A DNA stretch of 64,000 nt from Candidatus Spongiisociaceae bacterium (GTDB taxonomy: Bacteria > Actinomycetota > Acidimicrobiia > Spongiisociales > Spongiisociaceae): NCBI GenBank assembly GCA_965202665.1, contig OZ241841.1, positions 640,001 through 704,000 of the forward strand, in the 5' to 3' direction. Both the position numbers and the translations under genes were made by a program. This document shows, one piece after another, positions 519 through 11,101 of the stretch. The notes below the pieces were generated by a model that saw only the letters and a list, made by a program, of their open reading frames with translations, was not told the origin of the DNA and made no database searches. Position 1 is the stretch's first letter, and every line of letters begins with the position of its first letter.

Positions 519-1367
519 CTAAAGGGCACGCGACTCGGCGGCCAGGACGGTGTTGCGCATTAGCATCGCCACCGTCATCGGGCCCACCCCGCCCGGAACC
601 GGGGTCAGGGCGAAGGCTGCTTCGGAGACCGACTCGTAATCCGCATCTCCTACTAAGCGGCCGTCGGGGGCGCGGTTGATGCCCACGTCTATCACCACCG
701 CCCCCGGCCGGACGTATTCGGCGGTAATCATCCCCGGCGAACCCGCCGCCGCCACCACAATGTCCGCCCGCCGAGTCACCTCCGCCAAATCCCGGGTGCG
801 GGAATGGGCGATGGTGACCGTGGCGTCCGTCCCCCGGGCGGCCAGCAGCAAAGCCAAGGGGCGCCCCACCAAAAAAGACCGCCCCACCACCGCCGCCTCC
901 GCTCCCCGCACCGGAATGTCGTAGAAATCCAGAATGCGCAGGCATCCGGCCGGGGTGCAGGGAACCAGGCCGGGGCGGTCCATGACCAGCGCTCCCAGGT
1001 TGGCCGGGTGCAGGCCGTCGGCGTCTTTGGCCGGGTCTATCTCCATAACGGCCGCCTCCCCGTCCAGGCCGCCGGGGAGGGGAAGTTGCAGCAGAATCCC
1101 ATCCACCGCGGAATCATTATTCAGGGTTTTTATCAACCCGGTCACCTCGCCCTGCGAGGCGTTGGCGGGCAAGTCGTGATGGACGGAGGCGATTCCCGAC
1201 TCCGACGCCCGCCGCCGCTTGGACCTGATGTAAGTGCGGGAAGCCGGGTCGTCCCCCACCAGGATGGTGGCCAGGACGGGTTGGCGGCTCAGCACCCCCG
1301 CCCGTTCCCGAACCTCGTCCAGAACCGCCGCCGCCACCTGTTTGCCGTCCAAAAGGGTCGCCGCCAT
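519..1367 (-). CDS. folD: Bifunctional methylenetetrahydrofolate dehydrogenase/cyclohydrolase
   Basis: LLDGK start, DGILLQLPLP, KDADGLHP, PCTP, GRSFLVGRP, DVGINR, TPVPGGVGPMT motifs. Confidence 0.97.
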   Translation of the reverse strand: MAATLLDGKQVAAAVLDEVRERAGVLSRQPVLATILVGDDPASRTYIRSKRRRASESGIASVHHDLPANASQGEVTGLIKTLNNDSAVDGILLQLPLPGGLDGEAAVMEIDPAKDADGLHPANLGALVMDRPGLVPCTPAGCLRILDFYDIPVRGAEAAVVGRSFLVGRPLALLLAARGTDATVTIAHSRTRDLAEVTRRADIVVAAAGSPGMITAEYVRPGAVVIDVGINRAPDGRLVGDADYESVSEAAFALTPVPGGVGPMTVAMLMRNTVLAAESRAL

Positions 1368-1388
1368 CGTCTCCCAATCCTAGAATTT

Positions 1389-2909
1389 CTAATGGCGGAA
1401 ACGGCGCCGGCCGGTGAAAAGCATTGCCAAACCCAACTGATCGGCCCGGTCGATCACCGCCTGGTCGTTCACCGAACCGCCCGGTTGCGCCACCACCGCC
1501 GCCCCGGCCGCCGCCGCCTCCTCCACCCCGTCCGGAAATGGGAAAAAGCCGTCGGAGGCGCAAGCTCCCCCCGCCGCCCGCCCCTCCGCTTTGGCGGCCG
1601 CCATCCGCACCGCCCCCACCCGGTCCGGCTGACCGGCCCCTATCCCCCACGCCGCCCCGCCCGCCGCCAGCACCGCCGCATTGGAGGAGGCCGCCGCGCA
1701 CACCCGCCACGCCAAGCGGACGTCTTCCATCTCCGCCGGGGAAGGGCGGCGGCGGGTCGCTACCCGCCACTCTGCGGGACGGTCGGCGGGGGGAGCCCCC
1801 TGCGCCAGCCAGCCGCCCGGTATCTGCCGGAAAGACAAACCGGGCGGGGGGGGCGGGGGCGGGGCTTGCAGAACCCGCGTGTTGCTACGGCGGGCGGCGA
1901 TCCGCTCCGCCGTTCCCTCCCCGAAGCCGGGGGCTATCACGACATCCGCCTGCGGGGATCGTTCCAACACCGCGGCCGTATCCGCGTCCACCGAACGGTT
2001 GACGGCCACCACCCCCCCGAAGGCCGCCCGCCGGTCGCACTCATAGGCCAGTCGCAGGGCTTGGTCCAGCCGGGGGGCGACGGCTACTCCGCACGGGTCG
2101 GCGTGTTTGACGACCGCCGCCGCCGGGCCCTCCCCCAGGCCGTTCACCAACTCCCAGCCGGCGGCCGCGTCCAGCAAATTCAGGTAACTGAGCGGCGGGC
2201 CGTTGCGCAAAACTACATTCGCCCACCAGTCGTCGTCCCCCGGCCGGCGATAGCGGGCGGCGGGCTGATCCGGGTTTTCCCCGTATCGTAGAAACTCCGC
2301 CCGTTGCAACTCCAAGCGGACAACGGGCGGCAACGGCTCCGGGGGGCTTTGGGCCGGGGCCGCCGCGGGGGCGGGCCGGGCGAACCAGTCGGCGATGGCC
2401 GCGTCGTAGGCGGCGGTGCGGGCGAAGGCGGCCCGGGCCAGGCGGAGGCGGGTTTCGGCGGACGCCGAACCCCGGGAGCGCATCTCATCCAAAACCGGCT
2501 GATAGTCGGCCGGGTCGGACAGCGCCGTCACGTAAGCGTGATTTTTGGCGGCCGCCCGCAACAGGGCGCACCCTCCTACGTCTATGTTTTCCACCCCCGG
2601 GCGGGAAAAAAACGGATAGAGGTTGACCGCCACCAGGTCGATCGGCTCAAACCCCCCTTCGGCCATCTCCGCCCGATGGGAAGAGTCTTCCCGGTCGGCC
2701 AGAATCCCGCCGTGCACCTTCGGATGCAAAGTGACCACCCGATGTCCCAGAACGGGAGGGGCCCCCGTGTATTCCGCTAAATCCCGTATCTCCGCCCCGG
2801 CCTCCCGCAAAAACCGGGCGGTGCCCGCGCTGGCCAGAACCTCCCAGCCGAGGCCGCTCAGCCCGGAGGCCAGCTCCGCCGAACCGGTTTTGTCGTAAAC
2901 CGACAGCAA
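1389..2909 (-). CDS. purH: Bifunctional AICAR transformylase/IMP cyclohydrolase
   Basis: LSVYDK, RVVTLHPKVHGGIL, ENIDVGG, LRYGENP, KHADPCG, ASDGFFPF, QPGGS, TGRRRFRH. Start may instead be ATC at 2942 overlapping the sucD stop. Confidence 0.96.
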   Translation of the reverse strand: MLSVYDKTGSAELASGLSGLGWEVLASAGTARFLREAGAEIRDLAEYTGAPPVLGHRVVTLHPKVHGGILADREDSSHRAEMAEGGFEPIDLVAVNLYPFFSRPGVENIDVGGCALLRAAAKNHAYVTALSDPADYQPVLDEMRSRGSASAETRLRLARAAFARTAAYDAAIADWFARPAPAAAPAQSPPEPLPPVVRLELQRAEFLRYGENPDQPAARYRRPGDDDWWANVVLRNGPPLSYLNLLDAAAGWELVNGLGEGPAAAVVKHADPCGVAVAPRLDQALRLAYECDRRAAFGGVVAVNRSVDADTAAVLERSPQADVVIAPGFGEGTAERIAARRSNTRVLQAPPPPPPPGLSFRQIPGGWLAQGAPPADRPAEWRVATRRRPSPAEMEDVRLAWRVCAAASSNAAVLAAGGAAWGIGAGQPDRVGAVRMAAAKAEGRAAGGACASDGFFPFPDGVEEAAAAGAAVVAQPGGSVNDQAVIDRADQLGLAMLFTGRRRFRH

Positions 2910-2934
2910 CGCCCGGCCCGCGGGCGGCGGCCGG

Positions 2935-3819
2935 TCAGAGATTGCGGACCACCCCGACCATCAGGGAACCCGCCTCGGTGGGGCTTTCCCCCACTTTCGC
3001 CCCGGCGGCGGTCAAAGCCTCTATTTTGGCGGCGGCGGTGCCTTTGCCGCCGGACACGATGGCCCCGGCGTGTCCCATCTTTTTGCCGGGCGGGGCGGTC
3101 ACCCCGGCGATGTAGGCCACCACCGGCTTGCTCATATGGCCGGTGATGAACTCGGCCGCCTCCTCCTCGGCCGAACCTCCGATTTCGCCGATCATCATCA
3201 CCGCCTCCGTCTCCGGGTCGGCTTCGAAAGCGGCCAGGCAGTCGATGAAAGAGGTGCCCGGCACCGGGTCGCCGCCGATGCCCACGCAGGTGGTAACCCC
3301 GATGCCGTGCTGTTTCAGTTCGTACAAAGCCTGGTAGGTGAGGGTTCCGGAGCGGCTGACGATCCCCACCGGGCCGCCCGGCTGGGCGATGTGCCCGGCG
3401 GTGATCCCCACATTGGCCTTGCCCGGACTGATCAGGCCCGGGCAGTTGGGGCCCAGCAGGCGCAGGCGCGGGTAATCCCGGCGCAGTTTGTTGAACAGCC
3501 AGGCTTCGTCTTGGGCGGGCACCCCTTCGGTTATCACCACCGCCAACTCCACCCCGCCTTCGGCGGCGTCCAAAACGGCTTCTTTCACCCCCGGAGCTGG
3601 GATGAAAACGCACGACACGTTGGCCCCGGTAGCCTGCGCCGCCTCCCCCACCGAAGCGAAAATGGGGATGCCGTCCACATCGGTTCCGGCCTTGGCGGGG
3701 TGGGTGCCCGCTACCACTTTGGTGCCGTAGCCGCGGTTGCGCAACCCGTAGAAGCGGCCCTGGCGCCCGGTCAGTCCCTGATAGACGACCCGGCTGTTTT
3801 CGTCCAGCCAGATGCTCAT
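2935..3819 (-). CDS. sucD: Succinate-CoA ligase subunit alpha
   Basis: MSIWLDENSRVVYQGLTG, GPNCPG, SRSGTLTY, GIGGDP, MGHAGA phospho-His motif; ATGA overlap with sucC. Confidence 0.97.
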   Translation of the reverse strand: MSIWLDENSRVVYQGLTGRQGRFYGLRNRGYGTKVVAGTHPAKAGTDVDGIPIFASVGEAAQATGANVSCVFIPAPGVKEAVLDAAEGGVELAVVITEGVPAQDEAWLFNKLRRDYPRLRLLGPNCPGLISPGKANVGITAGHIAQPGGPVGIVSRSGTLTYQALYELKQHGIGVTTCVGIGGDPVPGTSFIDCLAAFEADPETEAVMMIGEIGGSAEEEAAEFITGHMSKPVVAYIAGVTAPPGKKMGHAGAIVSGGKGTAAAKIEALTAAGAKVGESPTEAGSLMVGVVRNL

Positions 3820-4988
3820 CGCCCGCCTCCCCCGCCGGTTCCCGCCCCGGCTTGGGCGATGGCCACCGCCTGAGCCGCCCCGTCCAGCATGGAATCGGCC
3901 AGTTGCAACATGCCGGACATGCGGGGTTGCAGCATTTCCCGGCCCCGGTCGGCGTTGGTTCCGTCCAGCCGCAAAACGATCGGGGAGCGCATGGTCACCC
4001 GTTGCAGGGCGTCCAGAATGCCCTGGGCCACCACCTCCCCTTTCACTATGCCCCCGAAAATGTTGATGAAAATGGAGCGCACCGCCGGGTCGTTGTTGAT
4101 CACCTCCAAAGCGGCCGCCATCGTGTCCACATCCGCCCCCCCGCCGATGTCCAAAAAGTTGGCGGCCGCGCCCCCCGTCTGATGCACCACGTCCACGGTG
4201 CTCATGGCCAGGCCCGCGCCGTTGGCGATCACCCCCACGTATCCGTCCAAGCCCACGTATTGCAGGCCGCGCTCCCGGGCGGCGGTCTCCCGCTCGTCGC
4301 GGGGCTGGGTGGCGTCGAAAGCCCGATAGTCCTCGTGGCGGAACACGGAATTGGCGTCCAAACTGACTTTGGCGTCCAAAGCCAGCACCCGCCCGTCTTG
4401 AGTCAGGGCGAGCGGGTTGATTTCCACCAAGTCGGCGTCGCCCTCCACGTAGGCGGCGTAAAGGCTGCGCAGGATGTCCGCCGCCTGCTCCGCCGCTTGC
4501 GCAGGCAGGCGGGCGTCGGCTGCCCACCGCTTGGCGGTTTCCCCGTCCAGGCCGTCCAACGGGTCAACCCAGATTTTGGCGATGGCCTCCGGGTCGCTTT
4601 CCGCCACCTGCTCGATGTCCACCCCGCCTTGGGCGGACAAAATGCCCAGATGCAGGCGGGTGGAGCGGTCCAGGGTGAAACTGGCGTAAAACTCGGCGGC
4701 GACGTCGGAAGCCTCCTCCACCCACAGCGTGTCCACCCGGTGGCCTTTGATGTCCATTCCCAGGATGGCATCGGCGGCGGCGCGGGCCTCGGCCGCGTCC
4801 TGCGCGACCTTGATACCGCCCGCCTTGCCCCGGCCGCCGATGTGCACTTGCGCTTTCACCACCGCCGGAAAACCGATGCGCTCGGCGACCGCCGCCGCCT
4901 CTTCCGCAGTGTCCGCCGCCCCGCCCGCCGGAATCGGAATCCCGAACCGGGCGAAGAAGCGCTTGCCTTGATATTCCAGTAGGTCCAC
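3816..4988 (-). CDS. sucC: Succinate-CoA ligase subunit beta
   Basis: MDLLEYQGK, KAQVHIGGRGKAGG, EINPL, NGAGLAM, ANFLDIGGG, NIFGGI; GAGGAGG SD before GTG. Confidence 0.97.
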   Translation of the reverse strand: MDLLEYQGKRFFARFGIPIPAGGAADTAEEAAAVAERIGFPAVVKAQVHIGGRGKAGGIKVAQDAAEARAAADAILGMDIKGHRVDTLWVEEASDVAAEFYASFTLDRSTRLHLGILSAQGGVDIEQVAESDPEAIAKIWVDPLDGLDGETAKRWAADARLPAQAAEQAADILRSLYAAYVEGDADLVEINPLALTQDGRVLALDAKVSLDANSVFRHEDYRAFDATQPRDERETAARERGLQYVGLDGYVGVIANGAGLAMSTVDVVHQTGGAAANFLDIGGGADVDTMAAALEVINNDPAVRSIFINIFGGIVKGEVVAQGILDALQRVTMRSPIVLRLDGTNADRGREMLQPRMSGMLQLADSMLDGAAQAVAIAQAGAGTGGGGGR

Positions 4989-5079: not shown

Positions 5080-6351
5080 ATGGAACAGCCTACTGAAAAG
5101 GAAAACGAGGCACTGGCCCGAAAATTATATGCAGAGTGGGACGAGGGGCGCGGAACGTCCAAGAGCGAGCTGGAACGTCGATACTGGGGCGACGGGAGCT
5201 CCCACGGTAGAAGGTTCGACCGCTTCATCCACGATCATTTGGGTATCCAAACCGCAAAACGCTCAAAGCAAACCAACCGTATTGAAGAACTGGAGCGACA
5301 AGTACGTTCGTTAGGCTACCATCCTGTCGGAATAGAACCAACAACTGAGGAAATACACCTATTACAAAGCAGGGAGGCCTGTCTATCGGCTCTGCGAGTC
5401 TGGAATGATCCAACCTACTCCTTTCGAACTGGAGCGTTCTCCTTATTGTTTGTTACAGCATGGAACAACCTCGCCCTCGCGATGGCAATGCGCAAAGGGA
5501 TAGAATGGCGTGAGTTGGATAAAACTGGAGCACCTATCCTGATCGATGAAATGGAAAAGCCTCGCCGTACGGACGATTTGATCAATTCAATATTATCATC
5601 AGAACAATATAAAGGGTTAAAAGAAAATATAAAGTTTTGGATCAATCTCAGAAACTGTGTAGCACATCGCTATCTACCAGAATTGGACATACAAGTTATA
5701 CCGCAAGCCCAAGCAGGTCTGCTCAATTTCGAAACCACCATATCAAATCAATTTGGAAAAGAACATGGGCTTGCCGAAAAACTATCAGTTCCATTACATC
5801 TCTCCGGTTTTCGCGACCCCGACACTTATAAAAATTTCCAAAAATCTCAAGCCCGTCTCCCTTTGGATGTCCAATATCTTCTCAGTGGAGCAGAACGCTC
5901 TCCAGAATTGCTAACAGATGATACTTATGCATTAAGAGTATCTTTTATTCCTTATGTTCCCGCCTCAGGGACAAGTCCTGATGCTATAGCCCATTTTATA
6001 AAGCCCGGAGAAGTTCCTACTGAGTTAACCGAAGCTCTAACAGACTATATCGTTATATCTAAAATATCTCGTGCTCCTAGACCAAATCTAAGGCCTAGCG
6101 TCGTAGCAAATCAAGTGCGAAAACGTATTCCTTTTGGTTTCAATACTACAGATCATGCCAAAATCGCAAGATATCTAAAAATTCGACCAGAGAAAGGAGA
6201 ACCAGATAGATCTCTCGATGAAAATTTCTGCGAACATTCACCCTATGGCTATCTATATAACCAGAAATGGGTAAATCGAGTTGTAAAAGAAATATCAAAT
6301 GCCGAAGGTTACAAAAGAGCAATAGGAAGAGATCCTGTTCGTAAAAACTAA
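5080..6351 (+). CDS. DUF3644-like (HEPN-type) protein, candidate defence/toxin RNase
   Basis: SREACLSALRVWNDP...FRTGAFSLLFVTAW resembles the DUF3644 N-terminus; RNCVAH matches the HEPN Rx4H motif; AT-rich and antisense to its neighbours. Confidence 0.75.
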   Translation: MEQPTEKENEALARKLYAEWDEGRGTSKSELERRYWGDGSSHGRRFDRFIHDHLGIQTAKRSKQTNRIEELERQVRSLGYHPVGIEPTTEEIHLLQSREACLSALRVWNDPTYSFRTGAFSLLFVTAWNNLALAMAMRKGIEWRELDKTGAPILIDEMEKPRRTDDLINSILSSEQYKGLKENIKFWINLRNCVAHRYLPELDIQVIPQAQAGLLNFETTISNQFGKEHGLAEKLSVPLHLSGFRDPDTYKNFQKSQARLPLDVQYLLSGAERSPELLTDDTYALRVSFIPYVPASGTSPDAIAHFIKPGEVPTELTEALTDYIVISKISRAPRPNLRPSVVANQVRKRIPFGFNTTDHAKIARYLKIRPEKGEPDRSLDENFCEHSPYGYLYNQKWVNRVVKEISNAEGYKRAIGRDPVRKN

Positions 6352-6392
6352 AACATCATAAGTTGGATCCCAATCAGATAAACCAATAAAGG

Positions 6393-6785
6393 CTAGCGGG
6401 GGGTGATGTTGGCCTCCACCCAGTCTGTTACTTCGGCCAGCGGGGTTCCGGGGGTGAAAACGGCGGCCAAACCCAGGTCGCGCAGGGCGGACGCGTCCTG
6501 CTCGGGGATGATCCCGCCTCCGAACACCACGATGTCGTCGATGCCCCGCTCGGCCAGGATCTCCGTTACTTTGGGGAACAGCGTCATGTGGGCGCCGGAC
6601 AGTACCGACATGCCGATGGCGTCCACATCCTCCTGCACCGCGGTTTCCACGATCTGGGCGGGGGTCTGATGCAGTCCCGAATATATCACCTCGTTGCCCG
6701 CGTCCCGCAAAGCGCGGGCGATCACCTTCGCCCCCCGGTCGTGCCCGTCCAAACCGGGTTTGGCGATGAGAATCCTCCTGGGCAC
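6393..6785 (-). CDS. Cobalamin B12-binding domain protein (methylmalonyl-CoA mutase small subunit)
   Basis: [35 protein letters not shown] motifs. Confidence 0.93.
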
Positions 6786-6798
6786 TCCGCCTGCTCCT

Positions 6799-7953
6799 TT
6801 ACCCGGAATAGCCGCCGGGACGGGCGGGACCTGACAGGCGGCTGCGTTCGGCTTCGATGTCGCCCATCATCTGGCGGTGGGCGTCGGCGAATTTGGCCAC
6901 CCCTTCCCGTTCCAAAACTTCGGTCACATCGTCGAGATCCACCCCGGCTTCGGCCAGGGCGTCCAAAACGGCAGCCGCTTCGTTCATCTGTTCGATGTTC
7001 AGCACCGGGGGGCGGTCGGGGCCCGACTCCTGGTAGGAGGCGATGGTGGATTCGGGCATGGTGTTGACCGTGCACGGAGCGGCCAGGGAATCCACGTAGA
7101 GGGTGGGCGAATAAGCCGGGTTCTTGGTGGAAGTGGAGGCCCATAACGGGCGTTGCGCCCGCCCCCCGGCCGCCTGCAACGCCCGCCAGCGGTCGGAGGA
7201 GAACATCCGCAGGAACTCCAGATAGGCCACCCGGGCGTTGGCCACCGCCGCCCGGCCCCGCAGGCCCAGCGCCCTCTCCGAGCCGACGGCTTCCAGCCGG
7301 GCGTCGGTTTCGCTGTCCACCCGGGAAACGAAAAAGGAGGCCACCGACGCCACCCGGGACGGGTCGCCGCCCGTATCCCGCAACCGTTCCAAGCCGGACA
7401 GGTAAGCGTTCATCACCGCCCGGTAGCGGTCGCGGGAGAAAATGAGGGTCACATTGACCGACACCCCTTCCGCGGTCAGGGACTCGATGGCCCCCAACCC
7501 GGGCGCGGTGGCCGGGACTTTGATCAGCAGATTGGGACGGTCCACCCGTTTCACCCAATCCCGGGCCTCCTCGGCCGTCCCTTCGGCGTCGTCCGCCAAC
7601 TCCGGGGAAACCTCCACCGAAACGAACCCGTCCGCCCCGCCCGAACTTTCGAACACCGGGGCCAGGATGTCGCACGCCCCCCGGATGTCCTGCGTCACCA
7701 CCGCCGTGTAAATCTCCTCGGTGGAGGCCCCCCGGGCCGCCATTTCCCCCACTTGCCGGTCGTAGGAATCCCCCGCCCGCAACGCGGCCGCAAAAATGGA
7801 GGGATTGGAGGTGAGCCCGGTGACCGCGTTGCGTTCCATATGCGAGGCCAGGGCGCCGGAGGCCAGCATCTCCCGGGACAGGGAATCCAGCCACACCGAC
7901 TGCCCCACCGAAGCCAGGTTGTGAAGTTTGGATGTTTGGGTCTTAGGGGACAC
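6799..7953 (-). CDS. tal: Transaldolase (actinobacterial type)
   Basis: [59 protein letters not shown]. Confidence 0.95.
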
Positions 7954-8016
7954 TGAAACTCCCGTAGGTTGCGACGGCTCCCCATTCTACCCGGCGCGGC
8001 GCCCCCGCCGCCTGAG

Positions 8017-8730
8017 TTATCCCGTATCCGCAGGACCGGAAGACCCTTGTCGCAGCTTTTCCAACGGAAGAAACGCCAGCAGAAGAGTTTTGCGCCCCGC
8101 CCAATCGAAATCGATCATCACCTCAACGCCGAAACCGGTACCGCTGACACCGCAAACCTGCCCCTCCCCGAACTTTCCAAGGTTCACCCGATCCCCCACC
8201 TGCGGCATGTTCTTCCGCAGGTTGCGGAAAAACTTGGCCGCGCCCGGCACCGTCGCATCCTCCGCTCCCGTATCGAAGTCACCTGCTTCTGGGTTATCCA
8301 ATATCTCTATATCCAACCAGAGTCCCGCCAACGGCAAAACTGTGGGGCCGTTCGCCTCAAAATTGATCTCCACTGCCGCCTCACGGCCGGAGCCGCGGAA
8401 TTCAAACACCTCACCCACCCCGAACTTGTCGTGACGCACCCGCTCCCCAGCGAACAAAACCTCCCAATCTGGCGAAAACCTCTCCAACGGAGCCCATTTC
8501 AGCGACAAAAGCTTGGACCCTTTTTTATCAAAATCGACCACCGCTTCAGATTCACAGCCGGAGCCGCGAATGTCGCACACCTTCCCCACCCCGAACTGGT
8601 CGTGGCGCACCCATTCCCCCACCTGCAACTCATCCCCCCTCAATCTACGGCGGGGGCCACCCTCGTCCGACCGCTCGTCGCCGGCCTTGTCTTGGAACAC
8701 TGGAACTCCCGTAGTCAAACCTGCGCCCAC
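8017..8730 (-). CDS. Protein of three tandem PcrA/UvrD C-terminal Tudor-like domains
   Basis: Three ~50-aa repeats (ELQVGEWVRHDQFGVGKV..; LFAGERVRHDKFGVGEV..; PQVGDRVNLGKFGEGQV..) align with the last ~55 aa of the adjacent PcrA (ELQVGDRVRHDKFGGGWV...GRKTLLLAWAPLQKA). Start codon uncertain. Confidence 0.8.
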   Translation of the reverse strand: MGAGLTTGVPVFQDKAGDERSDEGGPRRRLRGDELQVGEWVRHDQFGVGKVCDIRGSGCESEAVVDFDKKGSKLLSLKWAPLERFSPDWEVLFAGERVRHDKFGVGEVFEFRGSGREAAVEINFEANGPTVLPLAGLWLDIEILDNPEAGDFDTGAEDATVPGAAKFFRNLRKNMPQVGDRVNLGKFGEGQVCGVSGTGFGVEVMIDFDWAGRKTLLLAFLPLEKLRQGSSGPADTG

Positions 8731-8764
8731 TCTACCGCCCCCCGCCCCCGCTTGGAGGGCCGGG

Positions 8765-11029
8765 TTACGCTTTTTGCAACGGGGCCCAGGCCAGGAGCAA
8801 AGTCTTGCGTCCCGCCTCGTCGAATTCGATCACCACCTCCGCCTGATTGCCGGAACCGTTCAGGCCGCGCACCCACCCGCCCCCGAACTTGTCGTGGCGC
8901 ACCCTATCCCCCACCTGCAACTCATCCCCCAGCAGGCTGCGGCGGGGGTCGCCCGCTCCCGGCGACGGACCCGCCCGTTCCCGACGGGCGTCCCGCGGGC
9001 GGGGGGCGGCCCGGGAAACCAAATTAACGGGAATCTCCTTCAGGAACCGGGACTCCGCGTTGTAATCAAAAGAACCGAACAGGGAGCGGGTGGAAGCCGA
9101 GGTCAGAAACAGGCAGCGGCGGGCGCGGGTCAAACCCACGTAGCACAGGCGGCGCTCCTCCTCCATCTCGTCGTAATCGGTCAGAGAGCGGTAGTGGGGG
9201 AACAGCCCCTCCTCCATGCCCACCATGAACACCACCGGAAACTCCAACCCTTTGGCGTTGTGCATGGTCATCAAAGTGATTTTGTCATCGGAGTCCAAAG
9301 AGTCGGTGTCGGCCGCCAGGCTGACCGACTCCAAATAGGCCCGCAGAAGCCCCCGCCCGTCCGCCTCCTCCGACTCCCCGCCCGGCGCCTCCCAGCCTTC
9401 CACCGCCTGCTCCCGTTGCTTGATGAAATCCCCCGCCCCGGCCGCCAGTTCCTCCAGGTTCTCAATCCGGCCCAAAGCCTCTTCGGTGCCCTGCTCGCGC
9501 AACATGGCCAGGTAGCCCCCTTCGTCCAGCACGGTTCGCACCAAGACGTCCGGGCCGCCGTCGATCCTTTCCTCCAGCAACCTCATCACCGCCAGGAAAT
9601 CGCGGATTCCGTTCGCCCCCCGGCCGTCCAGCCCCGGGATGTCGTCAACTTGGCGCAGGGCTTCCAACAGGGCCAGGCCGCGCCGGTCGGCGAACCGCTC
9701 CGCATGCCCCAGCGTTACCTCCCCTATCCCCCGGCGGGGGGTGTTCACCACCCGGCGCAACGACGGCGAATCCTCCGGGTTGACCAGCAGGCGCAGATAG
9801 GCCAAAACGTCTTTCACCTCGGCCCGCTCGTAGAAACGGACGGAGCCGATCACCCGGTAGGGCAGGCCGTAGCGGTTTATCACCTCCTCCAGCACCCGGG
9901 ACTGGGCGTTCATCCGGTAGAAAACGGCGATGTCCCCCAAGGCGGCCCCCCCGCTCCGCTCCAAATCGACGGCTTGGTCGGCCACGAACGCCGCCTCGTC
10001 GTGCTCGTCCTGGGCTTGGAAGCGGACAATCGGCGGGCCCTCCCCCAGGTCGCTCCACAGGCGCTTGGGTTGGCGGCGTTCGTTGTGGGCGATGACCGAA
10101 TTGGCGGCGGCGAGGATGGTCTGCGTGGAACGGTAATTCTGGTCCAGCACCACCACTTTGGCCTGCGGGAAGTCCCGCTGGAAAGAGTCTATGTTGCGGA
10201 TGTCGGCCCCCCGGAAGCGGTAGATGGACTGGTCGGCGTCCCCCACCGCGCACAGGTTGCCGTGCCGGGCGGCCAACAGCTTCACCAGCTGGTATTGGGC
10301 GTGATTGGTGTCTTGGAATTCGTCCACATGCAGGAAGCGGAACCGTTCCCGGTAGCGGTCCAGCACTTCGGGGATGGCTTCGAACAGGTTGACGGTGACC
10401 ATCAGCAGGTCGTCGAAATCCATGGCCGACGCCTCCGTCAGCCGTTGCTGGTAGAGGCGGTAGATTTCTGCGATTCCCTTGCGGTACAAGTCCCCGGCGT
10501 CCTCCGCTTGGACGGCGAACGACTCGAAGTCGACCAGTTCGTTTTTGGCGTTGGAGATGACCGCCCTGATGCGGCGGGGCGGGTAGCGCTTCTCTTCCAA
10601 GTTCAGTTCGCGGACGGCCCGTTGAATGGCCCGGCGGGAATCCAGTTCGTCGTAGATGGTGAAGGAAGGGTTGTATCCGAGGTGGCCGGCCTCCCGGCGC
10701 AGGATGCGCGTGCAAGCGGAATGGAAGGTGGACACCCACATATCCCGGGCCGCGCCGCCCACCAGCCGGGCAACCCGCTCCGCCATCTCGGCGGCCGCCT
10801 TGTTGGTGAAAGTGATGGCCAGTATCTCCCACGGTTCCGCCCCCAGGTCGCGGAGCAGGTGGGCCACCCGGTAGGTGAGCACCCGCGTCTTGCCCGACCC
10901 CGCCCCGGCCACCACCAGCAACGGCCCCTCCACGGCCGCCACCGCCTCCCGCTGGGCCGGGTTCAAATCGTCGAACAGCGGCGAAAGAGCCGGATCGGAA
11001 ACTTCAGGGGGCGCGGCCAATGTCGTCAT
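8765..11029 (-). CDS. pcrA: ATP-dependent SF1A DNA helicase PcrA/UvrD
   Basis: LNPAQREA, AGAGSGKT, ITFTNKAA, VDEFQDTN, VGDADQSIYRFRGA, QNYRST, TMHNAKGLEF, EERRLCYVGLTRA, C-terminal Tudor domain. Start placed at ATG 11029. Confidence 0.96.
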   Translation of the reverse strand: MTTLAAPPEVSDPALSPLFDDLNPAQREAVAAVEGPLLVVAGAGSGKTRVLTYRVAHLLRDLGAEPWEILAITFTNKAAAEMAERVARLVGGAARDMWVSTFHSACTRILRREAGHLGYNPSFTIYDELDSRRAIQRAVRELNLEEKRYPPRRIRAVISNAKNELVDFESFAVQAEDAGDLYRKGIAEIYRLYQQRLTEASAMDFDDLLMVTVNLFEAIPEVLDRYRERFRFLHVDEFQDTNHAQYQLVKLLAARHGNLCAVGDADQSIYRFRGADIRNIDSFQRDFPQAKVVVLDQNYRSTQTILAAANSVIAHNERRQPKRLWSDLGEGPPIVRFQAQDEHDEAAFVADQAVDLERSGGAALGDIAVFYRMNAQSRVLEEVINRYGLPYRVIGSVRFYERAEVKDVLAYLRLLVNPEDSPSLRRVVNTPRRGIGEVTLGHAERFADRRGLALLEALRQVDDIPGLDGRGANGIRDFLAVMRLLEERIDGGPDVLVRTVLDEGGYLAMLREQGTEEALGRIENLEELAAGAGDFIKQREQAVEGWEAPGGESEEADGRGLLRAYLESVSLAADTDSLDSDDKITLMTMHNAKGLEFPVVFMVGMEEGLFPHYRSLTDYDEMEEERRLCYVGLTRARRCLFLTSASTRSLFGSFDYNAESRFLKEIPVNLVSRAAPRPRDARRERAGPSPGAGDPRRSLLGDELQVGDRVRHDKFGGGWVRGLNGSGNQAEVVIEFDEAGRKTLLLAWAPLQKA

Positions 11030-11101
11030 ACGCCCTACCCTACCACATCCCCCGGACGCAAAAATTACGCCGGTGTAATTCACCCCAAAAGACGACCTGG
11101 T

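Follow-up and report, generated by a model that had tools for sequence, protein, structure and literature searches.

A predicted helicase-free protein of three PcrA-type Tudor domains, encoded between pcrA and tal in a Candidatus Spongiisociaceae bacterium

Introduction

The helicase PcrA/UvrD carries a C-terminal Tudor domain (CTD; PF21196; PDB 5DMA, 9DQS, 6YI2 and 7EGS) for which several partners have been described. In Geobacillus PcrA the surface residues H681, W684, K712 and L714 of this domain are needed for binding to RNA polymerase (RNAP), and their mutation reduces it (PMC5397179). In Bacillus subtilis, UvrB and the SI1 insertion of RpoB each contain a β-hairpin with the motif [VIL]-D-x-x-T-G-E-[VIL]-[VILT] to which the CTD binds, and overexpression of the free CTD blocks the binding of PcrA to RNAP and raises R-loops (PMC8318588). 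Binding to RNAP, UvrB and Ku has been reported for the Tudor domain (PMC11975281), and in mycobacteria it has been connected with Ku and with a docking site that lies between helicase domains 2A and 2B (PMC11975281, PMC11912403). A Tudor-like fold is also found in the RNAP-interacting domains of CarD and Mfd, which bind the β subunit of RNAP (PMC5397179). Here we describe a gene whose predicted product consists of three such Tudor domains. It lies on the minus strand, between pcrA and the transaldolase gene tal, in a 64,000-nucleotide stretch of DNA from a Candidatus Spongiisociaceae bacterium (the window; positions 640,001 to 704,000 of contig OZ241841.1), whose numbering is used throughout.

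Each repeat of the protein scores as the PcrA/UvrD Tudor domain and the first, by motif spacing, keeps the four RNAP-binding residues; the differences are that there are three copies in one chain with no helicase attached, and that the key lysine is missing from the second and the key histidine from the third. The free CTD of B. subtilis is likewise a helicase-free copy of the domain and supplies the functional model adopted here (PMC8318588), but it was a one-domain laboratory construct, whereas the present protein is the predicted product of a natural gene, has three diverged domains and occurs with an RpoB that lacks both SI1 and the strict motif. The CarD/Mfd domain (PF02559, CarD_TRCF_RID) binds the β-1 lobe by sheet extension, unlike the PcrA CTD, and the Tudor protein scores below the cut-off for it (18.1 bits against 23, and over profile positions 1-21 only). 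The top whole-length Foldseek match is the triple Tudor of SETDB1 (PDB 6AU3 and 3DLM, among others; E 6.6e-6), with three barrels in about 210 residues; the TM-score is only 0.2 and the root-mean-square deviation (rmsd) about 20 Å, and SETDB1 is a eukaryotic histone reader without sequence relationship to the protein, so that the likeness is architectural only.

Results

Three Tudor domains and no helicase

The gene (8017..8700, minus strand, stop codon at 8017-8019) encodes a protein of 227 amino acids (aa) with an isoelectric point of 4.9, which matches PF21196 (PcrA_UvrD_tudor) in three stretches in Pfam (E 1e-26, 92.9 bits). When scored separately, every repeat exceeds the curated cut-off of 23.9 bits: repeat 1 (R1; 8482..8622) reaches 35.6 bits, R2 (8347..8448) 29.7 bits over profile positions 2-35 only, and R3 (8056..8199) 36.0 bits. 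The first-pass annotation had read the open reading frame (ORF) after pcrA as three CTD copies and had proposed a profile scan as a check, and the scan bears this reading out. R1, R2 and R3 are 54%, 47% and 60% identical to the CTD of the neighbouring PcrA (8771-8914, minus strand; 46.2 bits), a range of 47-60%, and 37-43% identical to one another. The last strand of R2 is diverged, and the best PDB sequence match of R3 is 9DQS (E 1e-5). Across the whole 2.77-Mb genome there are exactly four PF21196 matches, all of them above the cut-off and all at this locus.

Pfam finds no UvrD-helicase or UvrD_C domain in the Tudor ORF, while the neighbouring pcrA has both (UvrD-helicase at E 2e-94, UvrD_C, and PcrA_UvrD_tudor at residues 724-771); in NCBIfam the Tudor protein aligns with the pcrA/uvrD models over no more than their final ~50 positions. 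DUF3553 (PF12073) scores 25.8 bits on R1 (residues 37-83; cut-off 20.3), where PF21196 matches more strongly. The two models are related and DUF3553 adds nothing to the PF21196 assignment; a genome-level search for it gave no match at E <= 0.01. Judged by these profiles, the protein is three PcrA-type Tudor domains, free of a helicase.

The model of the whole protein is poor, with a mean predicted local distance difference test (pLDDT) of 55.9 and a predicted TM-score (pTM) of 0.33, and shows three modules with 4, 5 and 5 strands in R1, R2 and R3, where the domain is defined by a five-stranded Tudor/SH3-like barrel. Single-repeat Foldseek matches taken from this low-confidence model are 9DQS (target TM-score 0.78), 5DMA (0.77) and 7EGS_B (0.70), and superposition of the modelled repeats on either 9DQS or 5DMA gives an rmsd of 1.8 Å. 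The acidic linker between R2 and R3 (8209..8307) is predicted by the same model, at low confidence, to form a helix, AAKFFRNLRKNM, at residues 153-164; K156, F157, L161 and M165 of the linker are invariant across the aligned family sequences. The C-terminal tail, LRQGSSGPADTG (8020..8055), is found in some alleles only.

Start codon and gene order

The order of genes on the minus strand is pcrA (8765..11083 as the ORF is listed, encoding an SF1 helicase, with the true start possibly further in), a short spacer, the Tudor ORF, a second spacer, tal (6799..7953; TAL_FSA, E 5e-72) and a gene for a B12-binding domain (6393..6785). The Tudor ORF as listed, 8017..8730 on the minus strand, begins at a GTG at 8730, 34 nucleotides (nt) from pcrA. 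A second GTG, at 8700, has the sequence GGGAG ahead of it with a 5-nt spacer and gives a protein that begins MFQDK. This start, with minor variants, fits 29 of the 32 family proteins described below, while two (234 aa each) use the upstream GTG and one, of 117 aa, is a fragment. Because of the GGGAG sequence with its spacing, and of the 29 relatives that fit, 8700 was taken as the likelier start. The gap to pcrA (8701..8764) is then 64 nt, and not 34 as the first-pass annotation had it. There is no terminator-like site between pcrA, the Tudor ORF and tal on the minus strand, which is weak evidence; together with the 64-nt gap it suggests that the Tudor gene may be co-transcribed with pcrA.

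Origin from the 3' end of pcrA

Similarity at the DNA level between the ORF and the 3' end of pcrA had already been noted in the first-pass annotation, and the alignments uphold it at 71-75% identity, with offsets that fit the pairs of segments picked out there. Positions 8485-8669 are 71% identical to 8777-8961 over 185 nt, spanning the pre-Tudor linker of PcrA as well as the domain, and 8057-8124 are 75% identical to 8772-8839 over 68 nt; within the gene, 8329-8465 and 8500-8636 share 71% identity. The homology to pcrA starts at about residue 11 of the ORF, where 8669 pairs with 8961. In the sister species of the same genus (G001), the only other species of the genus available for comparison, pcrA (1040..3364) and tal (3451..4611; locus L013) are separated by an 86-nt gap without a Tudor ORF.

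The segment 8697-8714 (minus strand), which holds the ribosome-binding site GGGAG and the GTG start of the Tudor gene, repeats the start region of tal (7950-7967) at 17 of 18 nt (94%), with one mismatch and at a spacing of 747 nt. The two spacers in the window, 8701..8764 ahead of the Tudor gene and 7954..8016 between it and tal, which includes the tal ribosome-binding site, align with each other and with the single spacer of the sister species. The local alignment between the two scores 33, against 16.3 +/- 2.8 for shuffled sequences, a value reached by 2 of 2000 shuffles. The simplest reading of these alignments is a tandem duplication whose unit took in the PcrA linker, the Tudor domain, the stop codon and the spacer as well as codons 1 and 2 of tal. 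Since such a copy would have spanned into the first codons of tal, it would have inherited the tal ribosome-binding site and start codon. On the evidence of the aligned DNA, therefore, the Tudor gene is a recent insertion between pcrA and tal and descends from the 3' end of pcrA, and further duplication would have produced the three repeats. Each repeat is closest to the repeat at the same position in the divergent allele P0008 (see below), and because each pairs best with its positional counterpart the triplication is placed before the split between the alleles. The locus offers a clean, datable gene birth, the ancestral state of which can still be seen in the sister species, and this traceable birth is the most instructive aspect of the Tudor gene.

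The linker between R2 and R3 was also considered as a former stop, spacer and start, in which case R3 would once have been a separate ORF; this was dropped, as the alignment score was reached by 146 of 2000 shuffles. There are short colinear matches between 8212-8305 in this linker (RNLRK...M165) and 7959-8028, the stop, spacer and ribosome-binding site before tal, which are not significant.

Distribution and other multi-Tudor proteins

The Tudor gene was found in none of 40 relatives from the same family and order, each of which has a single match, at the C-terminus of PcrA. In a sample of 401 genomes from the phylum, 344 have PF21196; two matches occur in five of them, and four in this genome alone. 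The counts over the relatives and the phylum sample take in genomes marked unpublished. A scan of species-representative genomes returned no relative, just PcrA C-termini of cyanobacteria, and a scan of JGI metagenomes with the family alignment returned none. A search of 5.8 billion clusters found seven (213-227 aa, 58-93% identity), and an exhaustive search of 1.84 billion representatives found one representative of the family, P0032 (192 bits, 53% identity), all others falling below 80 bits. The family consists of these eight clusters at 90% identity, with 32 listed proteins, none of them named in any source. No relative was found at E <= 0.001 among shorter proteins (30-129 aa) or among longer ones (416-2000 aa), the latter being weak evidence. 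Near-identical DNA is present in runs labelled sponge or marine metagenome and in two organisms, from five studies. As far as these searches reach, the gene is young and lineage-restricted, belonging to one narrow lineage in sponge and marine metagenomes.

The domain itself is already known, and the architecture, for which the first-pass annotation knew of no described protein, proves on sequence comparison not to be unique. Among the 30 nearest Atlas clusters, 29 carry PF21196, and the top ones are single-domain proteins of 80-95 aa; these unnamed stand-alone proteins have the domain without a helicase, as here. Arrays also exist. P0033 (387 aa) has a Cys-rich N-terminus followed by three Tudors, P0035 has two Tudors alone, P0133 joins two to an HNH nuclease, and P0112, with 545 aa, is an array in which 7 stretches match, just one of them confirmed by Pfam as PF21196. 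P0143 is a UvrD helicase with three Tudor stretches. The architectures MTES_1575 nuclease plus Tudor and helix-turn-helix plus Tudor are seen in P0169 and P0116. The other multi-Tudor proteins are not close to the family, scoring at most 79 bits against 192 bits for its own representative and having different N-terminal parts (Cys-rich, HNH), and they are evidently independent inventions, to judge from these scores. Full-text literature searches for DUF3553, PF21196, or stand-alone or tandem Tudor domains with UvrD/PcrA found no paper on such proteins; the one paper that mentions DUF3553 concerns DinX.

Selection and allelic variation

Of the 32 listed proteins, 29 have an intact reading frame; the exceptions are two with a frameshift and the 117-aa fragment. 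In an alignment of nine sequences, with identity down to 52%, the frame is intact and the core Tudor residues of all three repeats are kept. Contigs from eight sequencing runs were aligned to the locus; 45 further differences, over a 1051-base stretch, lie outside the variants listed. Among the variants listed in the ORF there are 32 sites, 20 of them synonymous and 12 non-synonymous, with 161 and 520 sites available, so that per site synonymous changes are about five-fold above non-synonymous ones. The Nei-Gojobori dN/dS over 215 codons, which contain no stops, is 0.21 for the haplotype of runs X4 and X5 (from 24 listed differences in those codons) and 0.36 for that of X12 (from the 29 of 32 differences that are listed); dS is about 0.1 and both values are rough. 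The first-pass annotation had asked for syntenic multi-Tudor ORFs in relatives and for dN/dS: the former are absent from all 40 relatives, and the latter, at a rough 0.21-0.36, lies below the neutral value of about 1. Among the variants listed in the eight runs none falls in the ribosome-binding site and start at 8697-8714 (45 and 16 differences lie outside the list). In 7 of 8 aligned family sequences the Thr that replaces the key lysine of R2 and the Leu that replaces the key histidine of R3 are fixed, which fits divergence rather than decay. These patterns of substitution make it most likely that the Tudor ORF is a genuine gene on which purifying selection acts.

The G-run GGGGAGGGG in R3 (8158..8168) is the site of two different frameshifting indels in metagenome alleles: CCCC is added behind 8160 in X4 and X5, and one base is missing at 8166 in X3, where the depth is only 8.7. 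The frameshifts in R3 may be real losses at a mutational hotspot or errors of poly-G assembly.

Two deeply divergent allele classes are seen, P0008, P0021, P0028 and P0032 on the one side and the window type on the other, and the two never occur on one contig. Proteins of the P0008 type have the first ~28 and the last 20-35 residues near-identical to the window protein, and a middle that is, by eye, about half identical. The near-identity of P0021 and P0028 extends to residues encoded by the upstream spacer, while the N-terminus of P0032 matches the P0004 sublineage instead. To judge from these shared ends, this looks like recombination or gene conversion.

In some strains (contigs of X3, X4, X5 and X15, aligned at window positions 7965-8056) the gene ends in LPLEKV and a stop codon, without the 12-residue tail. 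Between the gene and tal there are 998 letters (X3 and X4) or 790 letters (X15) that are unlike the window. It was considered that these 790-998 letters hold a second Tudor gene, the gene in the window being a recombinant of tandem paralogues. The idea was rejected because no members of the divergent class and of the window type come from contigs of equal size, and because the contigs do not align to the tail in the window; contigs of the size of those from X3, X4 and X15 have no second Tudor protein recorded for them.

Candidate binding partners

The four RNAP-binding residues were mapped onto the repeats by motif spacing, a placement that is itself an inference. R1 has all four (His, Phe, Lys and Leu, with Phe for Trp as in the PcrA of the same genome). 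R2 and R3 have three of four each: in R2 the lysine is replaced by threonine (GPTVL), while it is kept in R1 (GSKLL) and R3 (GRKTL), and in R3 the histidine is replaced by leucine (VNL instead of VRH). The assignments of the lysine and the histidine are those of the first-pass annotation. In the alleles P0008 and P0032 none of the four residues is missing from any repeat.

The nearest approach to the helicase-interaction motif in RpoB (which starts at residue 79 of its open frame) is INRNTGEIK in the β-1 region, whose conservation in 23 relatives may have a structural cause. In UvrB the sequence VNPVTGEIV, near residue 228, agrees with the published motif at 8 of 9 positions, and the genome also encodes Ku. 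From these sequences UvrB and Ku appear equally as plausible as RNAP as partners. The strict motif has one match in the six frames of the genome, VDEETGELV, in neither RpoB nor UvrB. It sits outside the window in a 1193-residue open frame (G000:C1:966797-970375, minus strand), which has features resembling those of a B12-dependent ribonucleotide reductase, and could be a chance match or a further docking partner.

Structure prediction with the RNAP β subunit was another check proposed in the first-pass annotation. With the ORF alignment and an alignment of residues 1-450 of RpoB the ipSAE was 0.33, 0.31 and 0.33 in three runs, against 0.00 for the best of three controls, with a partner pLDDT of at least 61 and 100% contact agreement, a result graded 'weak support'. 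Among 157 solved complexes 116 attain the mark for this score, and among 215 mismatches 2 do; at values of 0.60 or less, however, these are only 18 of the 157, together with both mismatches.

Discussion

The reading that we favour, and hold with moderate confidence, is that the protein is a Tudor array that docks, mainly via R1, on the hairpin sites used by the tail of PcrA and so competes with or modulates recruitment of the helicase. It would be an array without a helicase, probably co-expressed with pcrA. R1 would dock on short β-hairpin sites used by the PcrA tail, namely in UvrB, and in RNAP β if RpoB has such a site, and the docked array would compete with or modulate the recruitment of PcrA, by analogy with the free CTD in B. 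subtilis. Binding to RNAP and/or UvrB is suggested by the conserved residues of R1 and the near-canonical motif of UvrB; the effect as a competitor would be expected by analogy with the laboratory construct.

Several observations weigh against this reading. R2 is without the key lysine and R3 without the key histidine in 7 of 8 aligned family sequences, which leaves at most one canonical repeat in the allele class of the window. RpoB has neither an SI1-type insertion nor the strict helicase-interaction motif, and the complex score for RpoB lies in the weak band with no interface returned; even this pass may echo the solved complex of the E. coli RNAP lobe with the UvrD CTD (7EGS). The low pLDDT and pTM of the whole-protein model count in the same direction. 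Mycobacterium smegmatis does not need the Tudor domain for excision repair (PMC11975281), so that any phenotype may be subtle. The lack of the gene in the sister species and in all 40 relatives means that it is dispensable for the wider group. Its GC content at third codon positions (GC3), 0.69, is lower than that of pcrA (0.85) and of tal (0.84), and the alleles P0011 and P0014 are frameshifted in R3, with predicted products of 193 aa that lack most of it.

Many of these points would equally suit an ORF that merely arose with a segmental duplication, has hardly any function or none, and owes its open frame to its youth while heading to decay, which we consider unlikely. The absence from the sister species and the 40 relatives, the GC3 well under that of the neighbours, the key residues lost in R2 and R3 and the two frameshifted alleles all speak for it, as do the dN/dS of 0.36 for the X12 haplotype, which indicates that constraint is not strong, and the 0.8-1 kb of other DNA inserted behind the gene in some strains. 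Against this, the frame is intact in 29 of 32 listed members and down to 52% identity, far beyond what an unconstrained frame of 227 codons would survive; per available site, synonymous changes are about five times as frequent as non-synonymous ones, and among the variants listed in the eight runs the ribosome-binding site and start at 8697-8714 are untouched.

The protein might alternatively be a scaffold and not a competitor, its three Tudors binding RNAP, UvrB and Ku at once and bringing repair factors, motor-free, to stalled transcription; this too seems improbable. It is consistent with three domains on flexible linkers for which no confident packing between domains was predicted (pTM 0.33), with the retention of His, Phe, Lys and Leu in all three repeats of the second allele class (P0008 and P0032), with the near-canonical motif of UvrB and the Ku encoded in the genome, and with the three partners reported for the Tudor domain in PMC11975281. 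It is harder to reconcile with an allele class, that of the window, in which only R1 is canonical, and with the loss of R3 in two alleles.

More doubtful still is an action on the helicase itself, in which free Tudors would fill the groove between helicase domains 2A and 2B, the docking place of the UvrD1 Tudor, or take over Ku binding, and so tune PcrA in trans. For M. tuberculosis UvrD1 a Tudor model fits density between 2A and 2B (PMC11912403), PMC11975281 cites an autoinhibitory role that Ku relieves, and the gene stands in operon position behind pcrA.

Finally, the first-pass annotation had pointed out that the frame of the ORF is open across the pcrA stop codon (8765-8767), which it is, up to a stop at 8830-8832, and that loss of one A from the run of five in the last codons of pcrA (8771..8775; CAAAAAG on the minus strand, T5 on the plus strand) would fuse the two, which by arithmetic is also correct, the ORF frame being +1 relative to that of pcrA. 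A longer PcrA tail made by frameshift or readthrough, a four-Tudor helicase with a counterpart of sorts in P0143, is nevertheless highly improbable, and as a conserved or programmed feature it was rejected, because a separate GGGAG ribosome-binding site precedes the ORF, which begins at a GTG copied from tal, the pcrA-to-ORF spacer measures 67 nt here in the comparison of contigs, one base shorter in X11 (66) and five longer in X15 (72), so that the frame relation is not conserved, the listed members are stand-alone gene calls of 193-234 aa bar the one fragment of 117 aa, a run of five is short for slippage and shows no sign of use, the shift needed would be +1 and not -1, and no close fused form is found among longer proteins (weak evidence).

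If competition at the docking sites of PcrA is what the array does, then some bacteria would employ a dedicated decoy, made of PcrA tails, to regulate or bridge the recruitment of the helicase, although the reach of this would be limited, the family being confined to one narrow lineage. A wider picture, speculative and on balance rather unlikely, is of a natural protein that acts in trans to antagonise or bridge the recruitment of the helicase: it would diversify fast and read, with a valency of up to three, the 'TGE' hairpins (RNAP, UvrB, perhaps others), and would have been born de novo from a pcrA tail capturing its neighbour's start, and kept as two divergent allele classes with identical ends, as would be expected in conflict (for example with phage factors at the docking site) or in the tuning of R-loops or repair in a symbiont.

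Beyond the operon, a 423-aa DUF3644 protein is encoded intact at 5080-6351 of the window (plus strand), and its counterpart in the sister species appears split into two ORFs, 5388..5789 and 5918..6667 (minus strand of locus L013).

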